A stretch of DNA of 64,000 bases, taken from contig JALEPU010000057.1 in assembly GCA_022766905.1 (NCBI GenBank), forward strand, positions 719 to 64,718. The letters run 5' to 3'. The position numbers and the translations under genes were made by a program. The DNA comes from Lachnospiraceae bacterium. Lineage in GTDB: Bacteria > Bacillota > Clostridia > Lachnospirales > Lachnospiraceae. This document shows, one piece after another, positions 28,865-51,099 of this stretch. Positions within the stretch are counted from its first letter, which is position 1; each line of letters opens with the position of its first letter. The notes beneath the pieces are model-generated. The model did no database searches. It was not told where the DNA came from and worked only from the letters and a program-made list of their open reading frames with translations.

Positions 28865-30466
28865 TTATCCTCTCAGTATCTCTTCCAGCGCAAGATAAGC
28901 ATCTTCATCTTTCTTTTGTTCTTCCAACGGAAGTTCATCAAAAGGTACCAGCAGAGGATGCTTTCTTTTTTTCTTATCCCGAACCGGTGCATACTCCCAG
29001 TTGTTCATAAAATGATATCGATTCCACCTGATATGTTCAATCTGCCAAAGTTTTTTCTTTTCCTCTTCATTCAACTGATGATATGCCTTCACTGCCTCAT
29101 CTCCGATTCCCGGTTCATCCATCCTTCGATCTGCCCCCAGAAGCAACCTGATTTTTTCCGGAATATGATCTGCCTGAGCAACATTGGAATATCTTAAAAA
29201 GGTGGTCAGTTTACTCCAGTCTTCAAGGAGATTCGGACAGGAAACACATTGATTCAGAGAACACAAATTTCCATTTTGTTTATTTTGGCATGGTTTTCCA
29301 TCTACTGTACCGTCACAACAATATTGTGCAAAATATCTGCTGTGAATCAGTTTTGCATGGTAAAACAGCTTTTCTTTCAGAATTGTCTCAGGATCGTATA
29401 ATTCTTTATTTACGCCAAAAGGAACAATGTTTTCTTTTTCCAGATTCCATAATGCAGACAACATTTTCTCATCGGAAAATTTCATATAACAGGCAGTATC
29501 CGCATAATAGGTTTTTAATTCATTTAACAGTTCAATGTTTTTTGCATCCATATCTTCAATCAGAATAACCCGGTCAAAAAAGTGATTTCTTTCCAGAATT
29601 TCATACCACTCCATGTCATAAAAATACACCGTATCATGATTGTCACAAATAGAATCATAAGGTTTCGCATCCCGTTCTTCTCCTTTTTCATTGATAATCT
29701 TAACATGAACGGTTTTGCTCAAATGATAATGTTTGGACAAATAGGCATGATAATCGCCTGCGATATGATATTCGATCTGAGAATCCGTAGAAATCACATT
29801 TTTCAAAATAGCCTGAGTTAACAGTCTTTGTCCGTAATTGTCAAAACCCAGCAAAAGTATTTTTTCTTTTTTATTCGTAACAGGATATTTATTCCAATAA
29901 TCTCTGGCACAATTCTCAGCTATATTACAAACAACCAGCTGTCTGTTTTCATAACTTCCCCGCAGTATTTTTTCCGAACACAAAAATACTTCTTTTTCAC
30001 TGCCATAAAACATTTTTGTTCCATGTTCATCCATAAAATGATACATATCAAAATCGTCTTCAAACATAAGAATATGCCTTGGAGCCCGAAAAGCAATTGA
30101 TTTATCCGAACAGATTGCTTTATTTCCCAGACTCTCCATGACAAGATCCTTATTTGCACTATCTCCGTGAATGGCAATCACATTATTCGTCCTGATTTTC
30201 ACCCAGATTCTGATATAATCTACCATAGAATAAAGAGCAGCTGCAATTGCAGCTGCTGTAGCAACAGGAGCCATAAACCTTGCAAACTCCGTAGCCGGAT
30301 TTAATACTTTGGCTTCTACACTAAATTCCATCACATATAATTGTGCTGTCTTATAAATGCAGTCCCAAAAAGTTCCCTCGTTTAAATTTATGATTCCATA
30401 TAATCCTACAATTCCAGGGACAAAAAACAGAAGTTTCCAGATCCTTTCCCACTTCTTTTTTTTCAT
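28865..30466 (-). CDS. Membrane protein: N-terminal 2-TM channel-like segment, two Rossmann-like modules, Cys-rich insert and tandem C-terminal RyR domains
   Basis: Start set to the ATG at 30466 (GGAGAGGA RBS; 533 aa). The C-terminus HIRWNRYHFMNNWEYAPVRDKKKRKHPLLVPFDELPLEEQKKDED matches the RyR-domain signature. An earlier half-repeat reads LIHSRYFAQ...WSKL..FLRYSNVAQADHIPEKIRLLG. Confidence 0.7.
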   Translation of the reverse strand: MKKKKWERIWKLLFFVPGIVGLYGIINLNEGTFWDCIYKTAQLYVMEFSVEAKVLNPATEFARFMAPVATAAAIAAALYSMVDYIRIWVKIRTNNVIAIHGDSANKDLVMESLGNKAICSDKSIAFRAPRHILMFEDDFDMYHFMDEHGTKMFYGSEKEVFLCSEKILRGSYENRQLVVCNIAENCARDYWNKYPVTNKKEKILLLGFDNYGQRLLTQAILKNVISTDSQIEYHIAGDYHAYLSKHYHLSKTVHVKIINEKGEERDAKPYDSICDNHDTVYFYDMEWYEILERNHFFDRVILIEDMDAKNIELLNELKTYYADTACYMKFSDEKMLSALWNLEKENIVPFGVNKELYDPETILKEKLFYHAKLIHSRYFAQYCCDGTVDGKPCQNKQNGNLCSLNQCVSCPNLLEDWSKLTTFLRYSNVAQADHIPEKIRLLLGADRRMDEPGIGDEAVKAYHQLNEEEKKKLWQIEHIRWNRYHFMNNWEYAPVRDKKKRKHPLLVPFDELPLEEQKKDEDAYLALEEILRG

Positions 30467-30482
30467 CAATTCCTCTCCTCCA

Positions 30483-31055
30483 TCAGAACGTGTCCAGATC
30501 ATCCTCATAATCATGGGTTGCAACATATTTGACATACTCAATTGCTTCCCTGACAGGCGGCAGACAAAGTACAACAAAAGAAATCAGCGCTTCTGCACCA
30601 ATATAACCGCCACAGTAAATCAAACCATATCTAATGTTTGCTGCCATAGTCTGATCAACCATGTAATAGAACCAGACACAGTTCCATACACTTTCTATGT
30701 ACCGGAAAAGAACAGCAAAGAGATAACCTTTCTGAAGGCCTTTTTTCTGATGAGAGAAAAATCCTCCCAGCCCAAGAACCCCGTATCCCAGAAGATAATC
30801 CCATACTTCCGGTACATTGATAATACCTGGATAATCCAGAACATATTTGATTGCTCCGAAACAAAAACAGGTAAACAACCCGGTTGGCCCGCCGTAAAAA
30901 TATCCTGCCAGGCAGAGAATCATCATGCTAAGACAGGTGACTTCTCCTCCTTCTTTCAACTGAAGAGGCTGCATATAAGAAAGCAGCAGGCTCAGTGCAA
31001 GAAGGGTGATAATCCAAAACCATTTTCGATTCCACAGATATCCTTCTTTTATCAT
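30483..31055 (-). CDS. ThiT/YuaJ-like polytopic membrane protein (ECF S-component-like)
   Basis: Start set to the ATG at 31055, which forms an ATGA overlap with the upstream stop. GGEVTCLSMMILCLAGYFYGGPTGLF...LDYPGI...LGYGVLGLGGFF follows the ThiT (Thia_YuaJ) pattern. About 190 aa with 6 predicted TM helices. Confidence 0.55.
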   Translation of the reverse strand: MIKEGYLWNRKWFWIITLLALSLLLSYMQPLQLKEGGEVTCLSMMILCLAGYFYGGPTGLFTCFCFGAIKYVLDYPGIINVPEVWDYLLGYGVLGLGGFFSHQKKGLQKGYLFAVLFRYIESVWNCVWFYYMVDQTMAANIRYGLIYCGGYIGAEALISFVVLCLPPVREAIEYVKYVATHDYEDDLDTF

Positions 31056-32947
31056 TTTTCCACCGATCCTTTTTCTCTTAATTTCTGTTTTCTTATATGG
31101 CGGTTTTTCTTGCTCAGAATGTACCACACGAGCAGAATCAATCCGCCTCCGCCCAGCACGACAACATCAAAGGTATTAGATGCCGATTCCACCGGAATTC
31201 CGCAGCTTTCATAAAACCTGCTTAAAAGACCTACCATATATTCCTGGACCTGCAAAATTGCCAGAATTGTTGCTGCTATATTAATAACCGCTCCGTTTCT
31301 ACGTTCATCTCTGGCATTTTTGATATCTACTATATGTTCCAGAAATTCCTGTTGCTCATAGTAATCCCGCCGCAATTCATCGTTTCCAAAGGCCTGTTTG
31401 ATCTGATCCGCTTCTCTTTGCGTTCCGTAATATTTAAAATTATTGCTTTGCCAGAACTTAATGGTTTTTGCATAATCTCTGTAAATCTGTCCGATATATT
31501 CATAGGAAACATCGCCTTCATGGGCAAGGGCATTGGATACTTTTATGGTCACTTTATTTAAAGCAGTATTTTGGAAAATCACCATTTCCACAATAAAAAT
31601 ATAGGTTGCGGTAAGTTCTATTCTCTCTTTTAATTCTTCCGGCTGAAACTCCTTCAAAATAAATGCAACCACCGCTTCCGTCATATAGACTTCATAATAG
31701 TCGTATACAGCCCGGTTTTTCTCCGCCTGCTCTTTCAATTCTTCATACTGAATATGAAAATCCTGATGCATACTGTTATAAGCTTCTGCCGTTAAAATAT
31801 TATAAAATTCCCGTTCTATTTCCGGTTTATTGGACATACAGATAATACTTTTTCCGGTTCCACAGGGAAGAAGACCAAACTCTTCTTTTAAGTACTGATT
31901 CAGTTCCTGATACTGATAAAAGCCCTTTTCATCCATGTCATTTTTATGACGGATTTTCAGGTAGCCATGACTTAACTGGTCCTCCACCTGAGAAGTGGAA
32001 TATCTGCAATCCGGAATAAAAAGCATAACTACATACATATGAGAAGAATGATGAGCAAGCAGGGAAAGGTACACCTTTTCTTCCCCCTGAATGTATGGTC
32101 TTGCGTTCTCATCTTCCTCGTCTTCATAGGTATCCAGGGTGTGAAGAAACATAAATTCTCCCAGATAAACTCTTTTTAATTCATTCACTACCGTATTCTG
32201 ACATTCATAATTCAGGCAGTCATCCAAAGCATTTAACAGGTAGCCTGCCACTTCCGGAGTTTTTGCATTTTTTATGCTGTATTCTTCTCCAAACAGTTTT
32301 TCTACTTTTGTATTTTTTTTATTGTCTGCATAGGGAAGAAAAAGATATACATCATCTTTGTAGGTCTTGAAATAAAGATCTTTCTTCAACAGCTTTTTCA
32401 GATAGATTCCGTCGCAAAGATAGACTTTATTTTCATCATGAATCTCCCGGTAAATGCGAAACATTCTGCTCCTCAAAAATTTCTGCCCATCTTCGGAAAC
32501 AGCAGTTGCAGAAATAGCATGAATCGGGTAACCTTCCTCTTCCAGCTCGTTGAGATAATCTACAAAACCGTCTGTTAATGTCATCACCACATTTTTATCA
32601 GACCGGTATTCTGGTGAAACGGCAATAGAAATAATAAACAAATTATTATCTTCCTCTTTGGAATAATCTGCCATTTCATCCGGTCTGATATCATCATCCC
32701 GTATTTCCATGCCCGTCTCTACAATTTCATCCCAAAGCTTTGGTTTTACCGGGAAAAAATTGATATAACCTGCAACTTTGTCTCCATCCATTACACAGAC
32801 AAAAGTTCTGGGATTTTCTTTGTATCTGTCTTCCATGTTCACCAGTTCTCCCACATACTGGTCCGGATAGCATTTTGCATCAATTTCCATAATTTTTGGC
32901 AAAAATGCAAGTCCCATCTCTTCGCCTTTTAAAATACTATACTTCAT
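31052..32947 (-). CDS. GNAT-family N-acetyltransferase fused to a large helical domain and a C-terminal 2-TM hairpin
   Basis: Start set to the ATG at 32947 (AGGAG RBS, 23 nt after the potD stop). The first roughly 190 aa look like a GNAT fold (VAGYINFFP..., FIISIAVSPEYR). The last 80 aa contain two TM helices (AVINIAATILAILQV / VVVLGGGGLILLVWYIL). Confidence 0.6.
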   Translation of the reverse strand: MKYSILKGEEMGLAFLPKIMEIDAKCYPDQYVGELVNMEDRYKENPRTFVCVMDGDKVAGYINFFPVKPKLWDEIVETGMEIRDDDIRPDEMADYSKEEDNNLFIISIAVSPEYRSDKNVVMTLTDGFVDYLNELEEEGYPIHAISATAVSEDGQKFLRSRMFRIYREIHDENKVYLCDGIYLKKLLKKDLYFKTYKDDVYLFLPYADNKKNTKVEKLFGEEYSIKNAKTPEVAGYLLNALDDCLNYECQNTVVNELKRVYLGEFMFLHTLDTYEDEEDENARPYIQGEEKVYLSLLAHHSSHMYVVMLFIPDCRYSTSQVEDQLSHGYLKIRHKNDMDEKGFYQYQELNQYLKEEFGLLPCGTGKSIICMSNKPEIEREFYNILTAEAYNSMHQDFHIQYEELKEQAEKNRAVYDYYEVYMTEAVVAFILKEFQPEELKERIELTATYIFIVEMVIFQNTALNKVTIKVSNALAHEGDVSYEYIGQIYRDYAKTIKFWQSNNFKYYGTQREADQIKQAFGNDELRRDYYEQQEFLEHIVDIKNARDERRNGAVINIAATILAILQVQEYMVGLLSRFYESCGIPVESASNTFDVVVLGGGGLILLVWYILSKKNRHIRKQKLREKGSVEK

Positions 32948-32970
32948 TGCATGCTCCTGACCTTGACCCT

Positions 32971-34032
32971 TTAGTCTGCTTTCAGCTCTTTCCACAATTC
33001 ATTCATAAAATCTGTCGTTTTTTCATCAGTCATGAGAGATACTTCGCAGTCCTTTGTGGCATCGTCAGATGGAACCAAAGCCTCATCTGCCCGATCTTCC
33101 TCTGACAGACTTTCAATCACTGCTTCATTTGGTGTAGAATAGTAAATATATTCAAAATTCTTCTGGGCAATATCTTCTCTGCACAGGAAATCTAAAAACT
33201 TCTGTGCAGCATCCATATTGTCACAGTATTTTGTAACACACCAGGAATCCAGCCATACATTGGAACCTTCCTTTGGAATCACATAAGCCAGATTTTCATT
33301 GTACTGATGTCCCAGATAAGCCTCTCCGGAATATACAACAGCCATAGTTGCATTCCCTGCAACAACTTCATCTCTGGCTTCGTCTACCAGATAAGCCTGT
33401 ACATCCGGTTTCTGTTTTAAAAGCAGTTCCTGAGCCTCTTTCAGTTCTTTTTCATCGCTGCTGTTCAAAGAATATCCAAGGGCTTTCAACGCCAGCATGA
33501 ACATATCACGCATACTGTTCTGCATGACGATTTCACCGGAATATTCTCCATTAAATAATACATTCCAGCTGTCTACCGGCTCTTTTACCTTGGTCGTATC
33601 ATAAAGGATACCTAAAGTTCCCCAAAAATACGGAACCGTATAGTTGTTATCCGGGTCAAATGCTTTTGAAAATTCCCAGTATTTATCTCCAATATTCTCT
33701 TTGTTTTCCAGGGCATCTATATCAATTTCCTGTAACTCTCCTTCACTAATCAGTTTTTGAAGCATATAATCCGTAGAGCAAAGCAAATCATATTCGATTG
33801 CACCGGATTTATATTTGGTATACATCTCTTCCGGAGTCAAAGCCTCTTCATATTTCACTTCAATTCCTGTCTCTTCCGTAAACTGATCCAAAACATCCGG
33901 ATCCATATATTCTCCGTAATTAAAAACTGTCAGAGTATCTGTCACTTCTGTCTTTTTGCTTCCGCATCCGGTCAGAACCCCGGAACATGCCATTACTGCA
34001 GCCATTACAAAACATACGATTCTTTTTTTCAT
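32971..34032 (-). CDS. potD: Spermidine/putrescine ABC transporter substrate-binding lipoprotein
   Basis: Lipobox LTGCGS, a PotD-like SBP_bac_8 sequence, and its position after potABC. Confidence 0.85.
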   Translation of the reverse strand: MKKRIVCFVMAAVMACSGVLTGCGSKKTEVTDTLTVFNYGEYMDPDVLDQFTEETGIEVKYEEALTPEEMYTKYKSGAIEYDLLCSTDYMLQKLISEGELQEIDIDALENKENIGDKYWEFSKAFDPDNNYTVPYFWGTLGILYDTTKVKEPVDSWNVLFNGEYSGEIVMQNSMRDMFMLALKALGYSLNSSDEKELKEAQELLLKQKPDVQAYLVDEARDEVVAGNATMAVVYSGEAYLGHQYNENLAYVIPKEGSNVWLDSWCVTKYCDNMDAAQKFLDFLCREDIAQKNFEYIYYSTPNEAVIESLSEEDRADEALVPSDDATKDCEVSLMTDEKTTDFMNELWKELKAD

Positions 34033-40971: not shown

Positions 40972-41010
40972 GGTTAAAGCTCCTTTGCTTTTCTTTTTCA
41001 TATATATTGT

Positions 41011-41039
41011 ATAATACAATGTTGGAAGCAAAACTTCAA
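41011..41039 (-). promoter_or_regulatory. Candidate sigma-A promoter for asnS-asnA
   Basis: The minus strand reads TTGAAG (41039-41034), a 17-nt spacer, then TATTAT (41016-41011). The resulting leader is only about 30 nt. Confidence 0.4.
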
Positions 41040-41041
41040 GT

Positions 41042-42052
41042 TTATTTCAAAGTCAGATTTTCTATATTTTTTATCACGATGGTCTTTCCGCCACCCGGTT
41101 CTTCAATGACTTCCACGTTGCTTTTTGAATTATATTCTTCCATGGGAATCGTAATCTCAATTCCCGTATCGGTTAAAAGCACTTGTTTTTCCAGTTTCTT
41201 TACGGTACTTTCATTGGCTACCGTAAAAGTATCATACTGCATATCATATCGTTCCAGCACCTCGTCATAATCCTGCTTCATCTCTGCATGGTTTCCAAAA
41301 ATCTTGTCTCCGATTTCATTCACGTTAAATTCCTGGTTTTCCACAAACTCCTGCTGTAAAATGCTTTTTGCTTCCATTTTCGCATTGATATCACGGTCAT
41401 CATATTTGTTATTGATATCCTGGATCGCTTTTGTTAAAATATTCAGCTTTTTCTTTGCCGGTAAATCTGCATGACAGAAAAATACTTTTTCCGATAAATA
41501 ATTCACTTTTTCTCCATTGATTTCATATCGTTTTTCAATCAGGCGGATTTCCATGGTTTTCAGATTAATGACAGCCGCTTCCGAAAGTCTGGACGATTCC
41601 GGAGGAAGAATAATTCTCTCTTTTATAATATCATTTTGATTCTCATCCGGCTGGGTATGAATGAAATTTTCTTTATAGTTCATTTTCAGCAAAGCAAGAT
41701 GAACGGTACTCTCCACCTGAAAACTTGCCATGACAAAGTCTGCAGAAGGAATCTGACCGCTGTCACACATCACATCGAAAATACACTCTGCTATTTTTTT
41801 GCTGACCGATACATATTCTTCCTCGTTATCCTCTTCGAAGGTTTCCAGCATGGCATAAATCGGAGAATTTTCCTCATCAAATTTACACTTTTTCATATCA
41901 TCGCTGGAAATCAGTTTATAAATATGGCCCCTAATAAAGTCATTCAAATCCGGTCCAAGCTCCAGAAAGGAGTCGGATAAGCCCAGGTAGCCTTTCTGAT
42001 AATCTAAAATATGTACAATTGCTTTACGGATTATAATATCATCTTTTTGCAT
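41042..42052 (-). CDS. Nucleoid-associated protein, NdpA/YejK (37-kDa NAP) family-like
   Basis: Start set to the ATG at 42052 (GGAGGA RBS). The N-terminal [11 protein letters not shown] motif and the overall size resemble Firmicute NA37-family proteins. Assigned from memory of the family only. Confidence 0.5.
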
Positions 42053-42115
42053 CTTCCATCCTCCGTTTATCAACATTCATGACTATTTTACGGGAAAATG
42101 CAAATTCCCGCAAGA

Positions 42116-45100
42116 CTAACCTGATTTTTCATTCTGATTTCTCTTCTTCCTTTGCAAGACCCTGAAAAGAAAAAGTCCGGCAATGATAGTTCCTCCTATT
42201 CCGGATAGAACAAAATAAAATAGGTTGTGATTGGAAATCTGTACCCAAAAATCGGGAGAAATCACACAGTCCATATTCTCCATAATTCCTATATTTCCTG
42301 CTTTGTCTATGACAATAAGGCCAATCGTCTGCTTTGCTGATTTGGCTGGAAGACTTACCCCTACTGTTTCATCATCCTGATGATCAAAATCAGCTGCTGT
42401 CATTGTCTTATATTTCCTGCCATCTACCATAAGATATGCCTGGTCCAGGCAGTAATTATCCATGGCTCGAATATAAATCCGATGTTCCTCTTCCCGGTAA
42501 CCGGTTTCTTCCAGCCCGGAAATAACCCCCGTTGGTGCTGTTTTATCAATAACGAACTCTATCGTTTTGTTTTTGATTTCATTGGTCATTTTATTTGCTG
42601 CCTGATCTTCCGAATAAAAGGTAACCGTATATCGGTTTTCTTCTTCAAACACTTCTGCATTTACCTGATAATGATACTGAAACCAGCTATATTGATTTCT
42701 GGATTCTTTTACCGTATAATCAATTCCTTCCTGTAAAATCTTATTTGCGTGATTTTCATCCCGTACTGTAATTTCTTTCTTTTTTAAAGGATTCACATTT
42801 ACTTCTGTAACATCCAGTTCTGTTTCCCGATTCGAATAATATTGATCCAGTAATTCCTGCGTCTTTACTCCAAACATATAGTTAGAACCAAAACGATTTA
42901 CGGAGAACATTTTACTGACTTTTGTTTGATTTCCTGCCTTATCTGTTGCAATCAACTCCATGGTATAAATATCATCCACTTCTTCTTTTCTTCGGAAGTC
43001 TTTCCACTGCTGTGTCCTGCCATTGTGGATTGATATAGGAGCTTCCCGGTCATAGGTAACAATCCCATTCTTTTTGCCTTCTAAAGAAACGGTATACTGT
43101 TCTAAATTTGTATCAGAAAACCGAATTCCCGGCGCTACAATATCATTGTTTGCTGAATGGTCCTCAATATTGGTAATTTCACACTTCGGTCCGGTACGAT
43201 CAATGGTAAAATCTGCTGCCTTCACTTCCTGTGCTTTATTTCCTGCCAGATCTGTATAATGGAATCTTAGTGTATAGTCTCCATCGCTTCCATAATAGAT
43301 TGTGGCTTTATAAGCATCACCATCTTTCTTCCATTGGCTTACCGATGGATTTTTCATTTTCTGTCCATCATTGGAAGCTGTCATCTGATACACTACATCT
43401 GATTCACGAAAGTTGTGTTCTAAGATAGATAGCGTCGCTGTACGAGGCGATTTGTAATATTTCCCATTGGCCACATCATTGTTGTCGAAACGGATAGAAA
43501 GCACAGGTGCGGTTTTGTCAATCGTAAATGTATCTGTTTTATCCCAAACAGCAGTATTCACTGCATAGTCAGTAATGGTAAATTTTAAGTCAAAATCTCC
43601 ATCTTCTGTGTAAGAAACTGTTGCTTCGTGGCTATCCCCATTGTGGCTCCATTCACTGATTACAACACCTTTTATTCCATTTTCACCAAAGCTATCCCAT
43701 TTTACTCCATTTTCGTCAAAGTTTCTTTCTATTACGGTTATATGAGCGATTCTGATCTGATTATAATATTTTTCGTTTTGGACAGGAGCGCTGCTTGTCC
43801 AGGATACTTTTATTTCAGGTTTTTTGCTGTCAATCACATATTGTTCTTCTGCCTTTTCTGTGTATCCTGCATTATCCATATAAGAAAGTTCTACTTTTGT
43901 CGGCGCATCTTTATTAGTATGATTTACATCATTGGCCGGTATCGTTAAAGTTTGCTCCAGGACATACTGATTCTTACTTTCATTTTCTTCCTTATCATCG
44001 CTTCCTGGATTTTCTTTATCACCATGACGGATTTCAATTGACGTACCGGCTTTATATCGATAAGCGCGAATACCGGATTGACTGTCATAAATCGAAAGAT
44101 TTATCTGAACAGGTTGATTATAATAATGGATATTTCCTATCGTTCTGCTTGGTCTGGTTATCGTTGTAATCTTAACTTTGCTGGTTTTTTTGTGCTTTTC
44201 TTCCGTCTCCGATACTACCCCTTTTGGCTGCATCAGATTTCCTTCGTTCATAGAACGGTCAACTGCGTATGCCTGTATCCGGCCTTTAAAATTTTCATCC
44301 AGTATGATGGCTTTGCCGGTCCATTTTCCTAGATCATCACTTTCATTTTTTAGAACGTCCTTTTTTATGATTTGACCATTTTCATCGATTATCTGATAAC
44401 CAATGGATTTTACGCCGCTAATCTCGTCATGTGCCGTAATAAGGGCAAATATCTTGTCCTGTCCAAAATAAGAATAATGGGTATATGGCATAAAATCTAA
44501 CAGTTTACTGCCGGATTTGTTTTTGGCAAATATCATGTCACTCAACTTCGTTCCTTCTGCTTTTCCAATCACAATTTTCGGTTTCTTCCTGTCAATGGTA
44601 ATTTTATCCGACTCTTTTCCTGTTCGTTTTGCAAGATCTTCATAAAAATAGGATAGATTACAGTTTCCTTCTTCTTTCCAGGAAATTACCGTAGTCCAAA
44701 CCTGTTTTTCATTTCCTTTTTCATCCATTCTCCAGGAAGAAGACCACCCTGTCCTGCTTTTTCCAATTCTATTATCATCATAGTATTTTACGGCGCTTTT
44801 AGAACTGTCTTTCTGATAAAAATAGGTACAATAATCCAAATCAAACTCTTCTGCCCGAAAGTTCTCTTCTGTGATTGTGATTGTGATATCCGTTGATTTC
44901 TGATAATAATTTCTGCCATCCTGTATATTTTCAGGTTTTTGGTTAAAGGAAACTTCAATCACAGGATCTGTCATATCAACCGTAATGACCGGGCTTGTGT
45001 ATGTTCCGACTGTCATGCAATTTGCGGTTTCACCCTTTTCCATTTTTCTATTTAGGCTTTGGGGCTCCATCCGATTACCGGCAGGATCTGCATAAGTCAG

Positions 45101-46996
45101 GGTAAAAGTGTAATGACCTTCCTGATCAATTGGAAACTTATAGGTATATGTGCCATTCTTTTCTTTTTTCCAATCCTTCTGTTTCAAATCGTATGTGGTT
45201 ACATCAGAAACAGCGTGATCATCTGCCTTATAATTTACAACGAACAAAGGATTTTTTATCTCGGCGATATTCTCATCCATGTTTTCCTCGTTTTCAAAGT
45301 TCTTCTCTTGCAAAGAAAACGTCACATTGGTTGATTCCCGGATAAAACATTCTACTGTACTGTCTTTGATGTTCTTTCCTTCGATATCTTTTGCATCTTT
45401 ATCCGTTACATTTGTCCAGGCGTCCCCATATGTTACCTCTAATACTGGTGCTGTATGGTCAAGAATTACTTCTTTTTCCAAAACAGCAGTACCATTTGTC
45501 TCATCTAATTTGGCATGATTTCCTGCTTTATCCTGTGCAGAAATTTTAAATATCCAGGGCCCTTCTTCGTCAAAACTAAATATAAAGTCATTGTCTTTTG
45601 TATTTTTCAGCTTTCCTTCTCCGGAATCCAGCGTAAAGCCTTTTTCTGCATTTGTTTCCTGATTGATTGCTGTAACGTTCACCGACTCTTTCTCCAGATA
45701 AGTTTCGACAATAGAAAATGTCATCACAAAGTCATCGTTTTCACTATTGGTAAGAAAAACAGGACCTTTTTGATTTGTGATTTCCTGATTCTTACTGTTA
45801 TTGTAAAAATGAATGTTACAAATGACCGGAATTTCTTTGTCGACAATCAAATCCACACTGGTAAAAATGCCATTTTCAATTGTTCCCCCTATCAAATTGC
45901 TGCCTGCTGTCATTTGATTATCAGCACAGTCTTCATAAAAAAATTTCAGAACATATCGCTCAATTGGATTTGTTTCCTGGTTGGCAGTAAGGGGCTTTGC
46001 GGAAAATGTAGCAGCCGGATATGGTTTCCATGAACCATTTCCATTTTTATATTCTCCGCTTTTCCCTGTTTGAACAGAATATTCGTATGTACCGTTTAAT
46101 TCTTTCTTTTCATCATAGAAATTTTCTTCCTTCAAATAAAAAGATGGAGAAATATCATTTTTATAGTAGATAGCTTCATTTTCATAATACTTTCCGTCCT
46201 CTTCCGGCGAAAATGAAACCGATAATTCCGGAGATGAGTTATCATATTTTATTTTGTCAGTGATTCTTTCATTGCATTTGTTTCCAGCTCGATCCACTGC
46301 CCAGATTGTATAAAAATGATTTCCCTCTACACATGGAATCGAATAGTTTCCATTCATCGATAACGCTGTTTGAATATCAGAATCTTTTGTCTTTTCATCT
46401 ACGCAATAGAAAACATTCGCCACTCCATTTGCGTCATGGGCTGATACCTGAATTTTCAGATCTTCATCGTGGTACCAACCTTTTTCGTTTGCCTTTCCGC
46501 TCATCTCCCAGGAGATAATCTCCGGCATCGTTTTGTCGAAAACAAACTGAACCAAAGAGGACATCTGCTTTAGCGTAGCATCTATCTTATTTACATTTTG
46601 CATTTGAAAATAAAGAATTCCTTCTGTATCAACCTGGTCATTTTCCAACGAGGATCCACAGTCTCTCCAGTCAAGAATTGTATGGATTTCATTTTTATCC
46701 GAAATCTGAACCACTCTGAATTGATTGTAAGTAGAATTTAAGAAATGTAGTTTTGATAAATCTCTGATATAATCGATTCCGCCTTCTGTATTGCCGTATC
46801 CTTCTGATAGAAAATAATCTTCTGTTTTGGTTATATCATATTTTCCCTCTGTTTTATTTTGTTTTACAGGAATATCTGTTGCCTTTGTTTCATCGAAGGC
46901 TTTCGCTAACACAGGAAATCCAAAAACTAATTTCATAGTAAGGGTGATCGCTAAAAAATAAGCCGGCATCCATTTAAAATGTCTGTTGTTTTTCAT
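42116..46996 (-). CDS. Giant (1626 aa) surface protein: signal peptide, about 10 Ig-like beta-sandwich modules, C-terminal TM anchor
   Basis: Signal peptide PAYFLAITLTMKLVFGFPVLAKA. A recurring module-boundary signature, D-x-AGN followed by D-x-T/K-x-P, occurs 10 times. C-terminal hydrophobic helix FYFVLSGIGGTIIAGLFLF is followed by RVLQRKKRN. No LPXTG motif. Confidence 0.8.
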   Translation of the reverse strand: MKNNRHFKWMPAYFLAITLTMKLVFGFPVLAKAFDETKATDIPVKQNKTEGKYDITKTEDYFLSEGYGNTEGGIDYIRDLSKLHFLNSTYNQFRVVQISDKNEIHTILDWRDCGSSLENDQVDTEGILYFQMQNVNKIDATLKQMSSLVQFVFDKTMPEIISWEMSGKANEKGWYHDEDLKIQVSAHDANGVANVFYCVDEKTKDSDIQTALSMNGNYSIPCVEGNHFYTIWAVDRAGNKCNERITDKIKYDNSSPELSVSFSPEEDGKYYENEAIYYKNDISPSFYLKEENFYDEKKELNGTYEYSVQTGKSGEYKNGNGSWKPYPAATFSAKPLTANQETNPIERYVLKFFYEDCADNQMTAGSNLIGGTIENGIFTSVDLIVDKEIPVICNIHFYNNSKNQEITNQKGPVFLTNSENDDFVMTFSIVETYLEKESVNVTAINQETNAEKGFTLDSGEGKLKNTKDNDFIFSFDEEGPWIFKISAQDKAGNHAKLDETNGTAVLEKEVILDHTAPVLEVTYGDAWTNVTDKDAKDIEGKNIKDSTVECFIRESTNVTFSLQEKNFENEENMDENIAEIKNPLFVVNYKADDHAVSDVTTYDLKQKDWKKEKNGTYTYKFPIDQEGHYTFTLTYADPAGNRMEPQSLNRKMEKGETANCMTVGTYTSPVITVDMTDPVIEVSFNQKPENIQDGRNYYQKSTDITITITEENFRAEEFDLDYCTYFYQKDSSKSAVKYYDDNRIGKSRTGWSSSWRMDEKGNEKQVWTTVISWKEEGNCNLSYFYEDLAKRTGKESDKITIDRKKPKIVIGKAEGTKLSDMIFAKNKSGSKLLDFMPYTHYSYFGQDKIFALITAHDEISGVKSIGYQIIDENGQIIKKDVLKNESDDLGKWTGKAIILDENFKGRIQAYAVDRSMNEGNLMQPKGVVSETEEKHKKTSKVKITTITRPSRTIGNIHYYNQPVQINLSIYDSQSGIRAYRYKAGTSIEIRHGDKENPGSDDKEENESKNQYVLEQTLTIPANDVNHTNKDAPTKVELSYMDNAGYTEKAEEQYVIDSKKPEIKVSWTSSAPVQNEKYYNQIRIAHITVIERNFDENGVKWDSFGENGIKGVVISEWSHNGDSHEATVSYTEDGDFDLKFTITDYAVNTAVWDKTDTFTIDKTAPVLSIRFDNNDVANGKYYKSPRTATLSILEHNFRESDVVYQMTASNDGQKMKNPSVSQWKKDGDAYKATIYYGSDGDYTLRFHYTDLAGNKAQEVKAADFTIDRTGPKCEITNIEDHSANNDIVAPGIRFSDTNLEQYTVSLEGKKNGIVTYDREAPISIHNGRTQQWKDFRRKEEVDDIYTMELIATDKAGNQTKVSKMFSVNRFGSNYMFGVKTQELLDQYYSNRETELDVTEVNVNPLKKKEITVRDENHANKILQEGIDYTVKESRNQYSWFQYHYQVNAEVFEEENRYTVTFYSEDQAANKMTNEIKNKTIEFVIDKTAPTGVISGLEETGYREEEHRIYIRAMDNYCLDQAYLMVDGRKYKTMTAADFDHQDDETVGVSLPAKSAKQTIGLIVIDKAGNIGIMENMDCVISPDFWVQISNHNLFYFVLSGIGGTIIAGLFLFRVLQRKKRNQNEKSG

Positions 46997-47017
46997 AAAT
47001 TCCTCCTTTTCTTTTTT

Positions 47018-47233
47018 CTATATCTGCTCTTCTGTATGAATCAAGATTATTTCTTTTGTCACAGTAAAATGGACAGATGAATTCGTTGTTTTTCCGGTCA
47101 AATATTGAAATACCTTGTCAATTCGATATTTCCAAAACAGAAAAATATCAAGTATGAGCAGTAATAAGAATAGAATGAGACAGACGAAAAAAATAGTCTG
47201 ATATAAATTGATTTGATATTTCATTGTTTCCAT
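47018..47233 (-). CDS. 71-aa single-TM protein with a Thr/Ser-rich C-terminal tail
   Basis: TM helix IFFVCLILFLLLLILDIFLFW, followed by KYRIDK and TGKTTNSSVHFTVT. Wedged between the kinase gene (8-nt gap) and the giant gene (21-nt gap). Confidence 0.5.
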   Translation of the reverse strand: METMKYQINLYQTIFFVCLILFLLLLILDIFLFWKYRIDKVFQYLTGKTTNSSVHFTVTKEIILIHTEEQI

Positions 47234-47241
47234 TCTTTACG

Positions 47242-48948
47242 TCACCTTCCTTTTCTTCTGCTCAGACTGCTGTACGCAATTTCAACCTTTCGCTTTGCAT
47301 TGATTAAATTATTTTTTAAGTGATTTATCTTTTTATTGATGGCATCATTTTTGTCATCACTGAGCTTCTCAATTCTGTTTTCGATCTTATTGATTTCTTC
47401 ATAAATTTTTTCCTGTGTTACTCCATTTGCTAAAAAATTTTCTGCATGATTACTTATTTGTACTGCAATCTCATTATAAAGAGTAAGTGCTGTTGTTTTA
47501 TTTCCCACATCGATAAATTCATTTTGATTCAATTTTGATAAATCCTCAAAAAACCGATTATATCCTGCAATAGTATTTTCACCGCTCAAGTCTTCTTTTC
47601 CCAGTGCCTCATAGTATGATCCAATCCTGCTGTATATTTCAGCTCTTTTTTTCTGTAAAGAATCAATACTTTTTACTCTTGTATTTATGACAGGATAAAA
47701 CCAGTTCTTCGCTGTATATTTTCCTTGCGTTCCCTTATACTTAAAAAAATAATTAATTCCCATCTGAAAACAAAATGGAATATATTCTTCCTTGTTCTTT
47801 TTCAGATAATCAATATTTCTTGCAGAGCCATTTATGGCATAAAGTGCAGAGGAAACTTTCCGTTCATCTTCTATGGAAAATTCTTCATCTTTTAGATAAT
47901 CTCCAAGCATTGCAAAATATGCTTTGCTGCTTCCGGGATTTAGTCTGATTGCTTCTTTATAATATTTTTGCTTTTCATCAGACAACGAAGATTGCGCTGC
48001 TCGTTCCAGATAAACCTCATAATTTTTTGATTTTATGTGATATATTTTCGTACTGCAAAAAAGAGCTCCCAGACCAAACAAAAGGGTAAATCCTGCGCAT
48101 AGGGAAAACTGTATCATTTTCTTTTTTTGTGATCTATGAAATGATTCATCCAGTTCTTTGTAATGCTCCAGTGCTTCTAACAAGTCAATGCAATTCTGAT
48201 ACCGGTCTTTCGGATTTAATTGAGTACATTTTAATAAAATCTTCTCAAAGCCAGTCGATAAATTTTCATCCCAATAACGAATTGGATACATTTCATAAGG
48301 CGGTGCCGCCGGATTATGCCCTGTTACCAGATGATATAATGTTGTGCCAAGACAATAGATATCTGTTCTTGCATCTGTCTGTCCATGACCTCCGAATTGT
48401 TCCGGTGCCGCATATCCTCTTGTCCCCAGACATGTGGTATCTTCTACATGACTGTTTTTAAATTCTCTTGCCGTGCCAAAATCAATGAGCGTTACATTAC
48501 CATCCGGTTTCAGCATGATATTTGCTGGTTTCATATCTCTGTAAATAATAGGAGGAACCTGAGCATGAAGATATTTTAAAACCTGACAAAGCTGTTTTCC
48601 CCATTCAATGACATTTTCCTGAGGCTGTGCTCCATGTTCTTTCAGTAATTTACTTAATGGTTCTCCTTCTATAAAATCCATAACAATCAGGAGTGAATCT
48701 TTCTCATCTATGACATCGACAATGTCCGGAAGGTTGGGATGACTTAATTTTTTTAATATATTGGTTTCAGCAATCAATCCCTGCCTTACAATTTCAAAAT
48801 CCTGGATTCCATCTTTACGAAGTTCTTTGATTGCCCACTGCTTATTGGCTCTTTCATTTAAAGCAAGATAGACAACGCTCATTCCACCTTGGCCGATTTT
48901 GTTTAAAATTTTATATGTTCCATTTATCGTGGAACCAATTTCCAGCAT
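47242..48948 (-). CDS. Hanks-type Ser/Thr protein kinase with one TM helix and an extracytoplasmic helical (TPR-like) domain; no PASTA repeats
   Basis: GQGGMSVVY, AIKEL, YRDMKPANIML, DFGTA and GYAAPEQ motifs. TM helix at about aa 289-311. The C-terminal 255 aa are helical-repeat-like. Confidence 0.9.
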   Translation of the reverse strand: MLEIGSTINGTYKILNKIGQGGMSVVYLALNERANKQWAIKELRKDGIQDFEIVRQGLIAETNILKKLSHPNLPDIVDVIDEKDSLLIVMDFIEGEPLSKLLKEHGAQPQENVIEWGKQLCQVLKYLHAQVPPIIYRDMKPANIMLKPDGNVTLIDFGTAREFKNSHVEDTTCLGTRGYAAPEQFGGHGQTDARTDIYCLGTTLYHLVTGHNPAAPPYEMYPIRYWDENLSTGFEKILLKCTQLNPKDRYQNCIDLLEALEHYKELDESFHRSQKKKMIQFSLCAGFTLLFGLGALFCSTKIYHIKSKNYEVYLERAAQSSLSDEKQKYYKEAIRLNPGSSKAYFAMLGDYLKDEEFSIEDERKVSSALYAINGSARNIDYLKKNKEEYIPFCFQMGINYFFKYKGTQGKYTAKNWFYPVINTRVKSIDSLQKKRAEIYSRIGSYYEALGKEDLSGENTIAGYNRFFEDLSKLNQNEFIDVGNKTTALTLYNEIAVQISNHAENFLANGVTQEKIYEEINKIENRIEKLSDDKNDAINKKINHLKNNLINAKRKVEIAYSSLSRRKGR

Positions 48949-48964
48949 ATTTCTCCTCCATTTC

Positions 48965-49732
48965 TCAACATGTTTTTATAAGAACAGCGGATATGTTATC
49001 CATCTCTTTGCGATATTTATTTAATTCCGTTAAATTAATCAGCTGGTTTCCCATGACCTTTTCTGAGGACATCCTGGAAGGATTTAATCTTTGGTAAATT
49101 TCCTGAGGTTTTATAACACGATAAAAGCCATCGGAACAAAGAAGATAACAGGAATTTTTCTTTGTCACGCCTTCATAAAATGCAGGCTTTATTAAATCAG
49201 ATGCTCCTACACATTGTAAAAGTACATTTTTTCGCGGATCCTTTTGGGCTTCTTCCTTGGTCATTCGTCCTCGGTCAATTTCTCTTTGAACAACGGTCTG
49301 ATCTTTTGTTAACTGAATCATGTGACTGGTTAACTCATAACCCCGGGAATCACCTACATGGATTACATAATATTGCTTCTCTGTAAGCAAAAGGGCAACC
49401 ACTGTTGTCCCCATTAGGGAATGTTCTTTCGCTGCATAATGGCTTATTCTGCTTCCACATGTTGTTATGACTTTTTCCATACTTCTTTGTATCACCTGAC
49501 TTTTCATTCCTGTAGAAAGATAATCGGGAAATTTTTCTTCAAACCATTTTGAAAAAGATCGAATTAAAGTTGCACTGGCCAGTTCTCCTTTCCATAGTCC
49601 TCCCATTCCATCGCAGATTACAGCAAGACATATTTTTCCGTAATCTGTATTTGCTTCTTTGATTAAGATCGAATCCTGGTTTGTATGCTTTTTTATTCCC
49701 ACATCTGTGTGAACTGCGGTTAAAAAGTTCAT
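48965..49732 (-). CDS. PP2C-family Ser/Thr protein phosphatase
   Basis: TDVGIKKHTNQDS, CDGMGG, GDSRGY and CSDGF metal-binding motifs. 255 aa. Confidence 0.9.
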   Translation of the reverse strand: MNFLTAVHTDVGIKKHTNQDSILIKEANTDYGKICLAVICDGMGGLWKGELASATLIRSFSKWFEEKFPDYLSTGMKSQVIQRSMEKVITTCGSRISHYAAKEHSLMGTTVVALLLTEKQYYVIHVGDSRGYELTSHMIQLTKDQTVVQREIDRGRMTKEEAQKDPRKNVLLQCVGASDLIKPAFYEGVTKKNSCYLLCSDGFYRVIKPQEIYQRLNPSRMSSEKVMGNQLINLTELNKYRKEMDNISAVLIKTC

Positions 49733-49848
49733 AAAGACCTTATTCTCCTTATTTTATTTATTTTTCCTGTGGTACATTGCAATGTGATATGAGTTCAATC
49801 GAATGTTAGAATTCTGTAGATCATAGATATTGAACTGAGATTGAATTT

Positions 49849-49877
49849 ATTATAACTCACTTCATTTCTTATTTCAA
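49849..49877 (-). promoter_or_regulatory. Near-consensus sigma-A promoter of the phosphatase/kinase/giant-protein operon
   Basis: The minus strand reads TTGAAA (49877-49872), a 17-nt spacer, then TATAAT (49854-49849). The resulting leader is about 110 nt. Confidence 0.55.
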
Positions 49878-50002
49878 GTTATTTTTCTATTTTTTTACAT
49901 TTATATATTTTTTTGTTTCCACGTTTTTTTTTCGAATTTTGGTTATTTCTATTATGAAATGCAGAGGTTTTCCGAATGATAGAAAAGAAGCGCCTATGAC
50001 AC

Positions 50003-50038
50003 AAAAAAAAGCGCCAACTTGCTAGAGCAAGTCGACGC
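50003..50038 (-). terminator. Rho-independent terminator of the butyryl-CoA operon
   Basis: On minus-strand RNA there is a 12-bp stem between 50011-50022 and 50027-50038 (two G-U pairs), with a 4-nt loop and 8 U after it. It lies 33 nt after the etfA stop. Confidence 0.75.
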
Positions 50039-50070
50039 TTCTACATTTCACATGTTAAAGATTATATGAA

Positions 50071-51099
50071 TTATTTATCAGCTAATACAGCTTTTACTTT
50101 CTCTGTCAGCAGAGGAAGGATCTGATTTAAGTCGCCAACAATACCGTAGTCAGCTACATCAAAAATAGGAGCTGTCTCGTCTTTGTTGATTGCGATGATA
50201 ATGTCGGACTCTTCCATACCAGCTACATGCTGAATTGCTCCGGAGATACCGATTGCAAAGTATACATGTGGACGTACGGTTTTACCTGTCTGTCCAACCT
50301 GCTGATCCTTCTCTGTCCAGCCTGAATCAACAGCTGCACGGGAAGAAGATACGGTTCCGCCGATTGCATCTGCAAAATCATATAAGAGTTTGAAGTTTTC
50401 TTTGCTTCCAACTCCACGTCCGCCGGATACAAGAATCTTAGCGTCCATGATATCAACCTTATCAGAAATCTTCTTAACAACTTCTTCTACTGTTACGTAT
50501 TTGTTGTTCTTTGTCAGTTCTGGGTTGAATTCGATTACTTCTGCCTTCTTAGAAGGATCTTTTTCTAATTTCTGCATAACGCCTGGACGTACGGTAGCCA
50601 TCTGTGGTCTGTTCTTCTTAATTAAGATAGTAGCCATGATGTTACCGCCGAATGCAGGACGGGTCATTCTTAAGTTATGTAAACCGCTGTCCGGATCTGC
50701 TTCCGGGTCGATTTCCAGTTTTGTACAGTCAGCTGTCAGACCGGATTTTACTCTTGCGGAAATACGTGGAGCAAGATCACGTCCGATTGCTGTTGCACCG
50801 TAAAGAACGATCTCTGGTTTGAACTCGTTAATTACTGCATCCATAGCCTGTGTATAAGGCTCTGTTGTATATTCAGCTAATACAGGGTCATCAACGATGA
50901 TAACTTTGTCAGCACCATAAGCTGCAAGATCATCTGCTAATCCCTTAACACCGGAACCAAGCACTACTGCTGTTACATCTGTTCCCAGGTCAGCTGCTAA
51001 TTCATTTGCTTTTCCGATTAATTCGTATGTTACACCGCTTACTTTGGCATCTACCTGCTGAGCGAAGACAAATACGCCTTTATAATCCTGTAAACTCAT
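50071..51099 (-). CDS. etfA: Electron transfer flavoprotein alpha subunit
   Basis: 342 aa, with the C-terminal FAD-binding region. Position after etfB and bcd. Confidence 0.9.
   Translation of the reverse strand: MSLQDYKGVFVFAQQVDAKVSGVTYELIGKANELAADLGTDVTAVVLGSGVKGLADDLAAYGADKVIIVDDPVLAEYTTEPYTQAMDAVINEFKPEIVLYGATAIGRDLAPRISARVKSGLTADCTKLEIDPEADPDSGLHNLRMTRPAFGGNIMATILIKKNRPQMATVRPGVMQKLEKDPSKKAEVIEFNPELTKNNKYVTVEEVVKKISDKVDIMDAKILVSGGRGVGSKENFKLLYDFADAIGGTVSSSRAAVDSGWTEKDQQVGQTGKTVRPHVYFAIGISGAIQHVAGMEESDIIIAINKDETAPIFDVADYGIVGDLNQILPLLTEKVKAVLADK

Follow-up and report, generated by a model that had tools for sequence, protein, structure and literature searches.

The system closest in logic to the operon described here is the epibiont sensing and response (Esr) pathway of Actinomycetes (Wang et al., bioRxiv, September 2026; PMC13622651). 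Esr comprises a Sec-exported surface filament of immunoglobulin-like (Ig) repeats without an LPXTG signal, one or more Ser/Thr kinases and a phosphatase in one cluster, and an FHA reader or output that carries phosphothreonine in a disordered region. A secretion system, often type VII, lies nearby in many cases, and the distal tip of the filament diversifies. In the topology of its kinase, the operon most resembles two other systems, the EssB/YukC proteins of type VIIb secretion and TraF from the pIP501 type IV system, which have a cytoplasmic N-terminal kinase fold, one transmembrane (TM) helix and an alpha-helical outer domain (PMC9600267, PMC13037476). The operon in question lies at 42116-49877 on the minus strand of a 64,000-nucleotide stretch of Lachnospiraceae DNA (contig JALEPU010000057.1, positions 719 to 64,718), the whole of which is called the window. 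It encodes a PP2C-type phosphatase, a Hanks-type kinase, a 71-residue membrane protein and a giant Ig-repeat protein, so that the Esr-like combination of a filament without LPXTG and a kinase and phosphatase in one cluster is found in the window. Membership of either described system nevertheless fails on defining features. The window copy is a reduced, dispensable example of a cassette that recurs in Bacillota, and for this cassette threonine-phosphorylation signalling coupled to a surface filament and a secretion machine is the best-supported reading. The fuller claim, that the operon is a reduced, chromosomally fixed copy of this fibre/kinase cassette and signals in the manner proposed below, has about an even chance of being right. 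A sequence-only reading of the same DNA knew of no described system that couples such an enzyme pair in one operon to a giant Ig-repeat protein. This holds for the cassette itself, of which no earlier description was found in a literature that left most subscription journals outside coverage, but its logic is shared with Esr.

The four open reading frames (ORFs), all on the minus strand and each with a plausible ribosome-binding site, were recovered at the coordinates given by the sequence-only reading, with the same intergenic gaps of 16, 8 and 21 nt. The first (48965-49732; MCI5595845) encodes a cytoplasmic PP2C-type Ser/Thr phosphatase of 255 amino acids (aa) that matches Pfam PP2C_2/PP2C. 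The second (47242-48948; MCI5595844) encodes a kinase of 568 aa, in which a cytoplasmic Hanks-type domain (aa 1-275, 48124-48948; Pfam Pkinase, 1e-49) is followed by a single TM helix recognised by its hydropathy (aa 278-296, 48061-48117) and by the extracytoplasmic all-alpha domain that defines the family (aa 297-568, with the stop codon 47242-48060). The third (47018-47233) is the 71-aa single-pass membrane protein, and the fourth (42116-46996; MCI5595843) is the 1626-aa Ig-repeat surface protein, or fibre.

About 90 related loci were compared, consisting of ten neighbourhoods (L001-L010), further contig look-ups and 79 loci from a metagenome scan with the kinase ectodomain. Their ORFs were classified by local iterative profile searches, and their kinases form 32 clusters, or lineages, at 90% identity. 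Every locus with enough DNA has the same gene order: a protein with the layout trypsin-like domain–FIVAR–TM–FHA, then PP2C, the kinase, a small TM protein (71-427 aa), at times with a 4-TM protein of about 145 aa after it, and a giant Ig protein (1044 to more than 4700 aa). With strict distance thresholds, and among loci with enough DNA for each gene, PP2C was counted in 71 of 75, the FHA protein in 59 of 66, the small protein in 77 of 78 and the giant in 60 of 64. When the locus tables were checked, the misses turned out to be threshold artefacts with two exceptions, namely L010, which has its FHA proteins elsewhere in the locus, and L067, where a partial downstream ORF of 1011 aa is not recognisable. 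The four PP2C misses each show a PP2C ORF in the table, and PP2C stands upstream of the kinase wherever upstream DNA exists. The window PP2C is 53-56% and the kinase 50-58% identical to cassette members, and all four window proteins are, as judged by sequence, their orthologues.

The co-conservation that the sequence-only reading proposed to check is borne out: the kinase/phosphatase pair keeps its neighbours in every related locus with enough DNA, and the linkage of kinase, phosphatase and fibre is not chance. It could be supposed that a housekeeping PrkC/PrpC-like pair has come to lie beside an unrelated adhesin by coincidence. PrkC/PrpC (Stk1/Stp1) likewise consist of a one-TM Hanks kinase with a PP2C gene before it in the same operon, and the best NCBIfam matches of the window pair are the Stk1 and Stp1 families. 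Both matches, however, fall under the family cut-offs. The kinase scores 202 bits against 450 for Stk1 (NF033483), in a match confined to aa 5-268 and hence to the catalytic domain, and PP2C scores 174.9 bits against 230 for Stp1/IreP (NF033484). Pfam finds no PASTA repeats in the kinase, which agrees with the earlier description of a PASTA-less kinase with a single TM helix. Unlike PrkC/PrpC, the window pair is accessory, low in GC, deleted in some natural strains and always linked to a fibre. Since 32 lineages and a Bacillus plasmid all show the five-gene order, chance adjacency is refuted by the conserved linkage and retains next to no credibility.

Some loci contain additional genes of related type. 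In Faecalicatena-type loci, a second membrane kinase with a TPR ectodomain directly follows the giant gene (L001 21543-21758; L005 18652-20565; L006 19772-21511). In L015-L017, an additional ORF with the family ectodomain comes after the second kinase, which suggests a tandem second cassette.

The catalytic residues of both window enzymes are intact. In PP2C, the metal-binding positions D20, D41-G-M-G-G, D128, D201-G and D245-N are invariant in 69 family members; in the kinase, G19, G21, K41, D138, D156-F-G, T171 and the A-P-E motif are invariant in all 68 unique family kinases. Both sequences remain under purifying selection in the window lineage. The ectodomain, described earlier as a helical or TPR-like domain of about 255 aa, is the C-terminal part of 272 aa. 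It begins with one TPR-like motif, and a profile search of PDB sequences matches only TPR proteins; its AlphaFold model is all-alpha with 14 helices (predicted local distance difference test, pLDDT, 86.6). The ectodomain profile collects 583 clusters (50% identity) at E<=1e-10. Among the best 150 of these, which include many shorter fragments, the full-length proteins of about 570 aa carry it at about aa 300-570. Full-length kinase homologues including the ectodomain are 48-70% identical and are common in Lachnospiraceae (Faecalicatena, Frisingicoccus, Hespellia).

These features bear on the suggestion that the cassette is a structural secretion module, in which kinase, small TM protein and giant replace EssB/YukC (or TraF), EssA and EsaA, with the window copy as an orphan. 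The topology of kinase fold, one TM helix and alpha-helical outer domain is the same, in L010 the interval from the WXG100 genes to the EssC-like gene is where the cassette lies, and none of the proteins encoded there matches the EssB, EssA or EsaA families, and in about five lineages type IV channel genes directly follow the giant gene. The YukC pseudokinase, moreover, binds the FHA domains of YukB, and the cassette has an FHA protein as a fixed partner. In EssB, YukC and TraF, however, the catalytic motifs are degenerate, whereas all 68 sequences of the cassette kinase retain every catalytic residue and the kinase has a phosphatase as its partner, which argues for signalling rather than a scaffold. 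A Foldseek search of the ectodomain against PDB gave no fold match (best E 0.27), and neither YukC nor EssB is among the listed matches. Several cassettes lie far from secretion genes, including that of the window, which has neither EssC/WXG100 nor type IV transfer genes; these occur only in relatives (L010 and L043-type loci). The structural reading is therefore improbable. As a homologue of EssB/YukC the kinase was rejected, because its ectodomain has no sequence or fold match to them and its catalytic residues are intact.

Known defence systems were also considered. Membership in PADLOC defence systems was rejected, the only matches being generic kinase, PP2C and trypsin domains. For the kinase-based anti-phage systems PD-T4-6 and MADS mad6, PADLOC matches cover only kinase aa 1-280, and the giant and the 71-aa protein have none.

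Across lineages, the small membrane protein starts with a TM helix, continues with a basic juxtamembrane T-G-K/R stretch and an acidic low-complexity repeat region (repeats such as GSEETTLL, GETTVL and DETELL), and ends in a conserved motif. In 86 unique proteins, the median number of T-[TSAEDQ]-[LIVM]-[LI] matches is three per protein, against 0.31 in shuffled sequences. Threonine with a hydrophobic residue at +3 is the classic FHA ligand, and the small protein looks like a multi-site phospho-acceptor. Motifs of the E-T-T-L-L type also occur in the FHA protein, whose cytoplasmic linker carries one or two copies directly ahead of the FHA domain in 36 of 57 cases; the L001 protein, with GETTLLDAGAGETTLL, is an example. 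Such an arrangement resembles that of GarA and OdhI, where an E-T-T-x motif stands next to the FHA domain of the same protein. In the GarA/OdhI E-T-T-S switches and in the PpkA/PppA/Fha1 system of Pseudomonas H1 type VI secretion, an FHA domain reads a threonine motif, the phosphorylation of which is set by a TM Hanks kinase and a PP2C phosphatase. Those systems differ from the cassette in hosts, partners and machine, and they have neither a giant fibre nor a multi-repeat membrane adaptor. The trypsin-like H/D/S triad of the FHA protein is intact in only 11 of 57 proteins, so its outer domain is a pseudoprotease in most cases.

The 71-aa protein of the window would be a minimal form of this adaptor. 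It keeps both family end motifs, TM-[YF]-x-T-G-[KR] at the start and F-x-I-x-K-E-I-x-L-I-H-T-E-E-x-I at the end: its N-terminal TM helix and Y-L-T-G-K match a 195-aa protein of L001, and its C-terminal K-E-I-I-L-I-H-T-E-E-Q-I matches the C-terminus of a 188-aa protein of L006. Threonine motifs number zero in the small proteins of the window, L008 and L007, against the family median of three. The ORF is intact in L008, where it is 76% identical. Its exact sequence is absent from the protein collection searched. As the accession numbers of giant and kinase are consecutive, the ORF is probably unannotated. Gene callers also missed it in L092-L099, although the ORF is conserved and its family numbers about 80 sequences.

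The fibre consists of a signal peptide (about aa 1-32), a variable tip (about aa 33-200), Ig-like repeats, a TM helix (aa 1591-1609, 42170-42226) and a short basic tail. Pfam assigns Big_13/Big_3_x domains, and there are nine D-x-A-G-N motifs. The C-terminal TM anchor and the lack of a sortase motif, both noted earlier, were found again: there is no LPXTG sorting signal, its place at the C-terminus being taken by the TM helix and basic tail. Over its C-terminal 1000-1400 aa, the window giant shares 31-38% identity with those of L001, L005 and L006. In comparison with L008, identity is only about 30% in the first 200 residues, where there is a 108-aa indel, and 74-96% in the remainder, a pattern that points to swapping of the fibre tip between strains.

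The window operon, correctly described before as a four-gene unit, is a reduced derivative of the larger cassette, from which the FHA reader and the adaptor threonine repeats are missing. No FHA or trypsin match is found anywhere in the window, and the place upstream of PP2C is occupied by the etfA terminator and the promoter. The relatives form a stepwise series. L102 (kinase 62% identical to that of the window) has the FHA protein and an adaptor of 158 aa. L101 (66%) has no FHA protein, a LytTR regulator and a 257-nt gap preceding PP2C, and its adaptor is 143 aa long. In L007 (63%), the contig starts at the kinase and the adaptor has 90 aa, and in L008 (90%), as in the window, the FHA protein is absent and the adaptor is a 71-aa protein without repeats. 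Along this series, the FHA reader and its presumed docking sites vanish together. The fibres of the window, L007 and L008 are the shortest of the set (1044-1626 aa), frameshifted long-read contigs aside. NA37 follows the giant gene in L007 and L008 as well, and because the reduced arrangement is common to L007, whose kinase is only 63% identical, it must be old. Identity to L008 is 85% for PP2C, 90% for the kinase, 76% for the 71-aa protein and 84% for the giant, compared with 98.8% for NA37. The L101 contig (4668 bp) encodes overlapping parts of the same LytTR regulator at its two ends, and only 113 aa of the giant are left on it. Either the assembly is a circular artefact, or this lineage has really deleted its fibre gene.

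Within the species, eight contigs with identical EtfA and 99.7% DNA identity all carry the cassette between etfA and NA37-asnS-asnA. Variation was counted on these eight strains; additional L097-like contigs exist beyond them. L097 and L099 lack 953 bp (window 48926-49878), with a 15-bp microhomology at the junction; they are left without promoter, leader and PP2C gene, and their kinase gene lacks its first 23 nt. In L092, a point nonsense mutation (L092 16488; region of window 44612) splits the giant into ORFs of 794 and 809 aa. All genes are intact in the other five. The operon is dispensable in the gut, since strains of the same species carry natural loss-of-function alleles. By sequence comparison, the locus evolves fast and swaps its tip. 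The intact and broken strains of the window's species are ready-made mutants.

Such alleles are also what would be expected if the window operon were a functionless, decaying relic of an old mobile-element insertion. The FHA partner and adaptor repeats are missing, the GC content is low, and two of the eight strains have the deletion from promoter to PP2C and one the nonsense mutation in the giant. The relic interpretation, however, has to accommodate a reduced arrangement that has been kept, together with NA37, since the divergence from L007, intact catalytic residues in both enzymes, a 71-aa ORF that is intact in L008 with conserved end motifs, and five fully intact strains among eight. It is unlikely.

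The preferred reading is a signalling cassette that first belonged to a mobile-element module and of which the window retains a part. Gene content and order, catalytic residues, motif enrichment, mobile contexts and natural knock-outs are established, and the scheme proposed for them is as follows. The full cassette has five parts. One protein spans the membrane, with its FHA domain in the cytoplasm and a trypsin-like domain, mostly catalytically dead, outside; the others are the PP2C phosphatase, the single-pass Hanks kinase and its all-alpha ectodomain, the E-T-T-L-L adaptor and a giant Ig fibre that a C-terminal helix holds in the membrane. The fibre, with its strain-swapped distal tip, and the kinase ectodomain would report surface contact. 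The kinase would then phosphorylate the threonine motifs of the adaptor, the FHA protein would read the phosphothreonines, and PP2C would reset the system. On mobile elements, cell-cell contact (mating-pair formation, aggregation or exclusion) might in this way be coupled to the adjacent type IV or type VII machine. The window copy has lost the FHA reader and the threonine repeats, leaving the fibre, the kinase/phosphatase switch and a 71-aa stub. Of the earlier suggestion of an outside-in signalling or surface-display control module, the transmembrane signalling part fits this anatomy. Surface-display control of an adhesin is too narrow, because the cassette typically lies on conjugative or mobile DNA beside type IV and, once, type VII genes.

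In about five kinase clusters (for example L043, L021, L047 and L083), type IV genes lie directly downstream of the giant gene in the order small TM protein, polytopic protein of about 354-372 aa, PrgI-family protein (4e-14) and VirB4-like ATPase (CD1110 family, 1e-53 on the N-terminal 260 residues). Upstream, L043-type loci show a long run of co-directional ORFs that match no family. Other clusters have topoisomerase III-like genes, a VirB11/T2SSE-like ATPase, dUTPase and helix-turn-helix (HTH) regulators among family-less ORFs. In L010, two WXG100 genes accompanied by DUF5085 genes lie on one side of the cassette, and on the other side lies an EssC-like gene that has an FHA domain and, in precomputed annotation, FtsK_SpoIIIE domains. 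This EssC/WXG100 link is unique to L010 among the roughly 90 loci, for which reason a general tie to type VII secretion was rejected. Lys/Ala-rich low-complexity proteins of about 180-310 aa, without Pfam or NCBIfam match, occur upstream of the cassette in three otherwise different mobile-element contexts (L043 156-974; L059 1848-2945; L039 82-714).

A distant copy was found on plasmids of Bacillus. A tblastn search of PLSDB with the ectodomain matches only ten B. thuringiensis plasmids of about 350 kb, including NC_018516, which reviews identify as pXO16. On the pXO16-type plasmid, the cassette genes are spread over 24 kb (127.9-152.0 kb in NZ_CP045024.1). They encode an FHA protein, PP2C and a kinase with 36% identity along its whole length, as well as a small TM protein of 283 aa with TQILDEGTQILDEGT repeats and a 2402-aa 'Ig-like domain repeat protein' that is 30% identical over about 900 aa. 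pXO16 shows aggregation-mediated conjugation, for which a 25-kb agr region has been mapped (PMC9673590, PMC8835621). Like PrgB of pCF10, the surface proteins of this agr region are large and lie beside transfer genes, but PrgB is LPXTG-anchored and has no kinase or phosphatase partners. The FHA protein of the pXO16-type plasmid (L090 5-1258; NZ_CP045024.1 127944-129197) has no trypsin domain, and its first 150 residues, judged by eye, resemble a degenerate kinase-like region. A scan of viral contigs found no relative; one 4.6-kb 'Bacteriophage sp.' fragment, which bears no annotation, matches the ectodomain at 29% identity.

From these contexts a more specific reading can be put forward tentatively. 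The cassette may be a contact-sensing, mating-pair module of Gram-positive conjugative elements and the Bacillota counterpart of Esr, in which adaptor phosphorylation licenses the type IV or type VII machine; it might also underlie the Agr+ aggregation of pXO16. Lachnospiraceae make much of the butyrate in the gut and exchange mobile DNA heavily, and the way in which their conjugative elements find and keep partners is almost unstudied. The cassette, which is conserved and widespread, is a testable candidate for a device that makes type IV or type VII secretion of Gram-positive bacteria depend on contact, and it would carry the logic of an Ig filament plus threonine phosphorylation into a second phylum with different parts.

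The same parts could instead form an Esr-type threat sensor, whose Ig fibre detects an attacker (epibiont, phage or competitor) and in which threonine phosphorylation triggers a defence such as type VII secretion or surface remodelling. The logic is that of Esr, the L010 cassette stands between WXG100 and EssC-like genes, the tip is swapped between near-identical strains, and loss-of-function alleles segregate as they would for a surface structure under conflict. Within the DNA seen, however, the type VII link is present in only one of 32 lineages, and type IV or conjugation contexts are commoner. According to its authors, Esr is essentially confined to Actinomycetes (PMC13622651), and the hosts here are Bacillota. 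No sequence relationship between Esr and the cassette has been shown. Esr has vWA and MoxR partners, an anchoring transglutaminase (EsrD) and a WD40 tip. The vWA, MoxR and transglutaminase families are absent from the scanned window genes and, like a beta-propeller partner, from the neighbourhood listings, which is not an exhaustive search. Giant aa 1-200, looked at for a beta-propeller sensor, has no Pfam domain (pLDDT of the tip model 31). The cassette differs in that its fibre is anchored by a C-terminal TM helix of its own and its kinase is a single-pass receptor whose ectodomain is TPR-like; its presumed phospho-acceptor, a small TM protein bearing E-T-T-L-L repeats, is encoded separately. 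Unlike EsrG, the cassette FHA protein has a TM helix and an extracellular trypsin-like domain, and the window has no FHA component at all. A threat sensor of the Esr type is accordingly also an unlikely reading.

Several points weigh against the preferred signalling cassette too. Its substrate, ligand and output are all ones that we infer. In the window (about 42 kb on one side and 14 kb on the other), there are no type IV or type VII genes and no FHA protein, so the proposed output cannot run there as it does elsewhere. The link to mobile elements is frequent and not universal, the cassettes of L001, L005, L006 and L009 being flanked by housekeeping genes, and the type VII genes of a single lineage count in the same direction. 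A proteolytic output is unlikely in most lineages, given the few intact triads. The joint loss of FHA protein and repeats rests on one clade, in which L101 retains a 143-aa adaptor without an FHA protein. The tip model, built by AlphaFold from a single sequence, is unusable at pLDDT 31. A word-indexed search with the N-terminal 300 aa of the giant (46007-46906) gave no match even though the exact full-length protein is in the collection; the tip either lacks detectable relatives beyond its own 90% cluster or has some that escaped the index.

The operon boundaries agree with the earlier description. PP2C is preceded by a spacer of 338 nt with 28.4% GC, which had been estimated at about 340 nt and very AT-rich. 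Within it, a sigma-70-type promoter (TTGAAA-17-TATAAT, 49849-49877, minus strand) matches 11 of 12 positions and is the top site in a scan of 41000-51000. Promoter-like sites as a class are no commoner than in shuffled sequences (33 versus 33.3), and the match is therefore weak evidence by itself. The call is supported by its position in the operon's only long spacer, by the intrinsic terminator of etfA just upstream (50007-50042, minus strand; a 16-bp stem with seven G-C pairs and a T run), which marks the upstream boundary, and by the AT-rich 5' leader (49733-49848, minus strand), the last 110 nt of which are almost unchanged in L008 although the kinase there is only 90% identical. An Rfam search of the leader found no family. 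Its only match, to the L20 leader, reached 27 bits against a gathering score of 58.7 and overlaps the etfA terminator, and it was dismissed as chance.

An independent promoter or terminator between 47018 and 47242 was also looked for. No terminator-like site was found on the coding strand within the operon, except weak 5-6-bp stems inside the giant gene, and the nearest promoter-like site (47372-47344, 9 of 12 positions) is at chance level. No terminator follows the giant gene, where the sequence offers just a 6-bp hairpin lacking a T run. Read-through is therefore possible, and the transcript may extend into the gene for the NA37 nucleoid-associated protein (41042-42076, minus strand), which begins 39-63 nt further on, and into asnS. 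The flanks are housekeeping blocks as described before, bcd-etfB-etfA on one side and NA37/asnS on the other. The cassette has a GC content of 0.364, compared with 0.414 +/- 0.024 for the remaining window genes. Loci of the clade nearest to the window (L003 4506-7239; L101 3-452; L102 152-871) carry, directly upstream of the cassette, genes for a LytTR response regulator and an AgrC-like HATPase_c_5 protein, which suggests quorum-type transcriptional control there; no such regulator is present in the window.

Elsewhere in the window, two low-GC genes (0.37-0.38) lie next to each other at 28865-30577 and 31052-32995. The product of the first, of 570 aa, has a RyR domain at its C-terminus, and that of the second, of 647 aa, is without Pfam or PADLOC match. 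The two genes may be another accessory pair.

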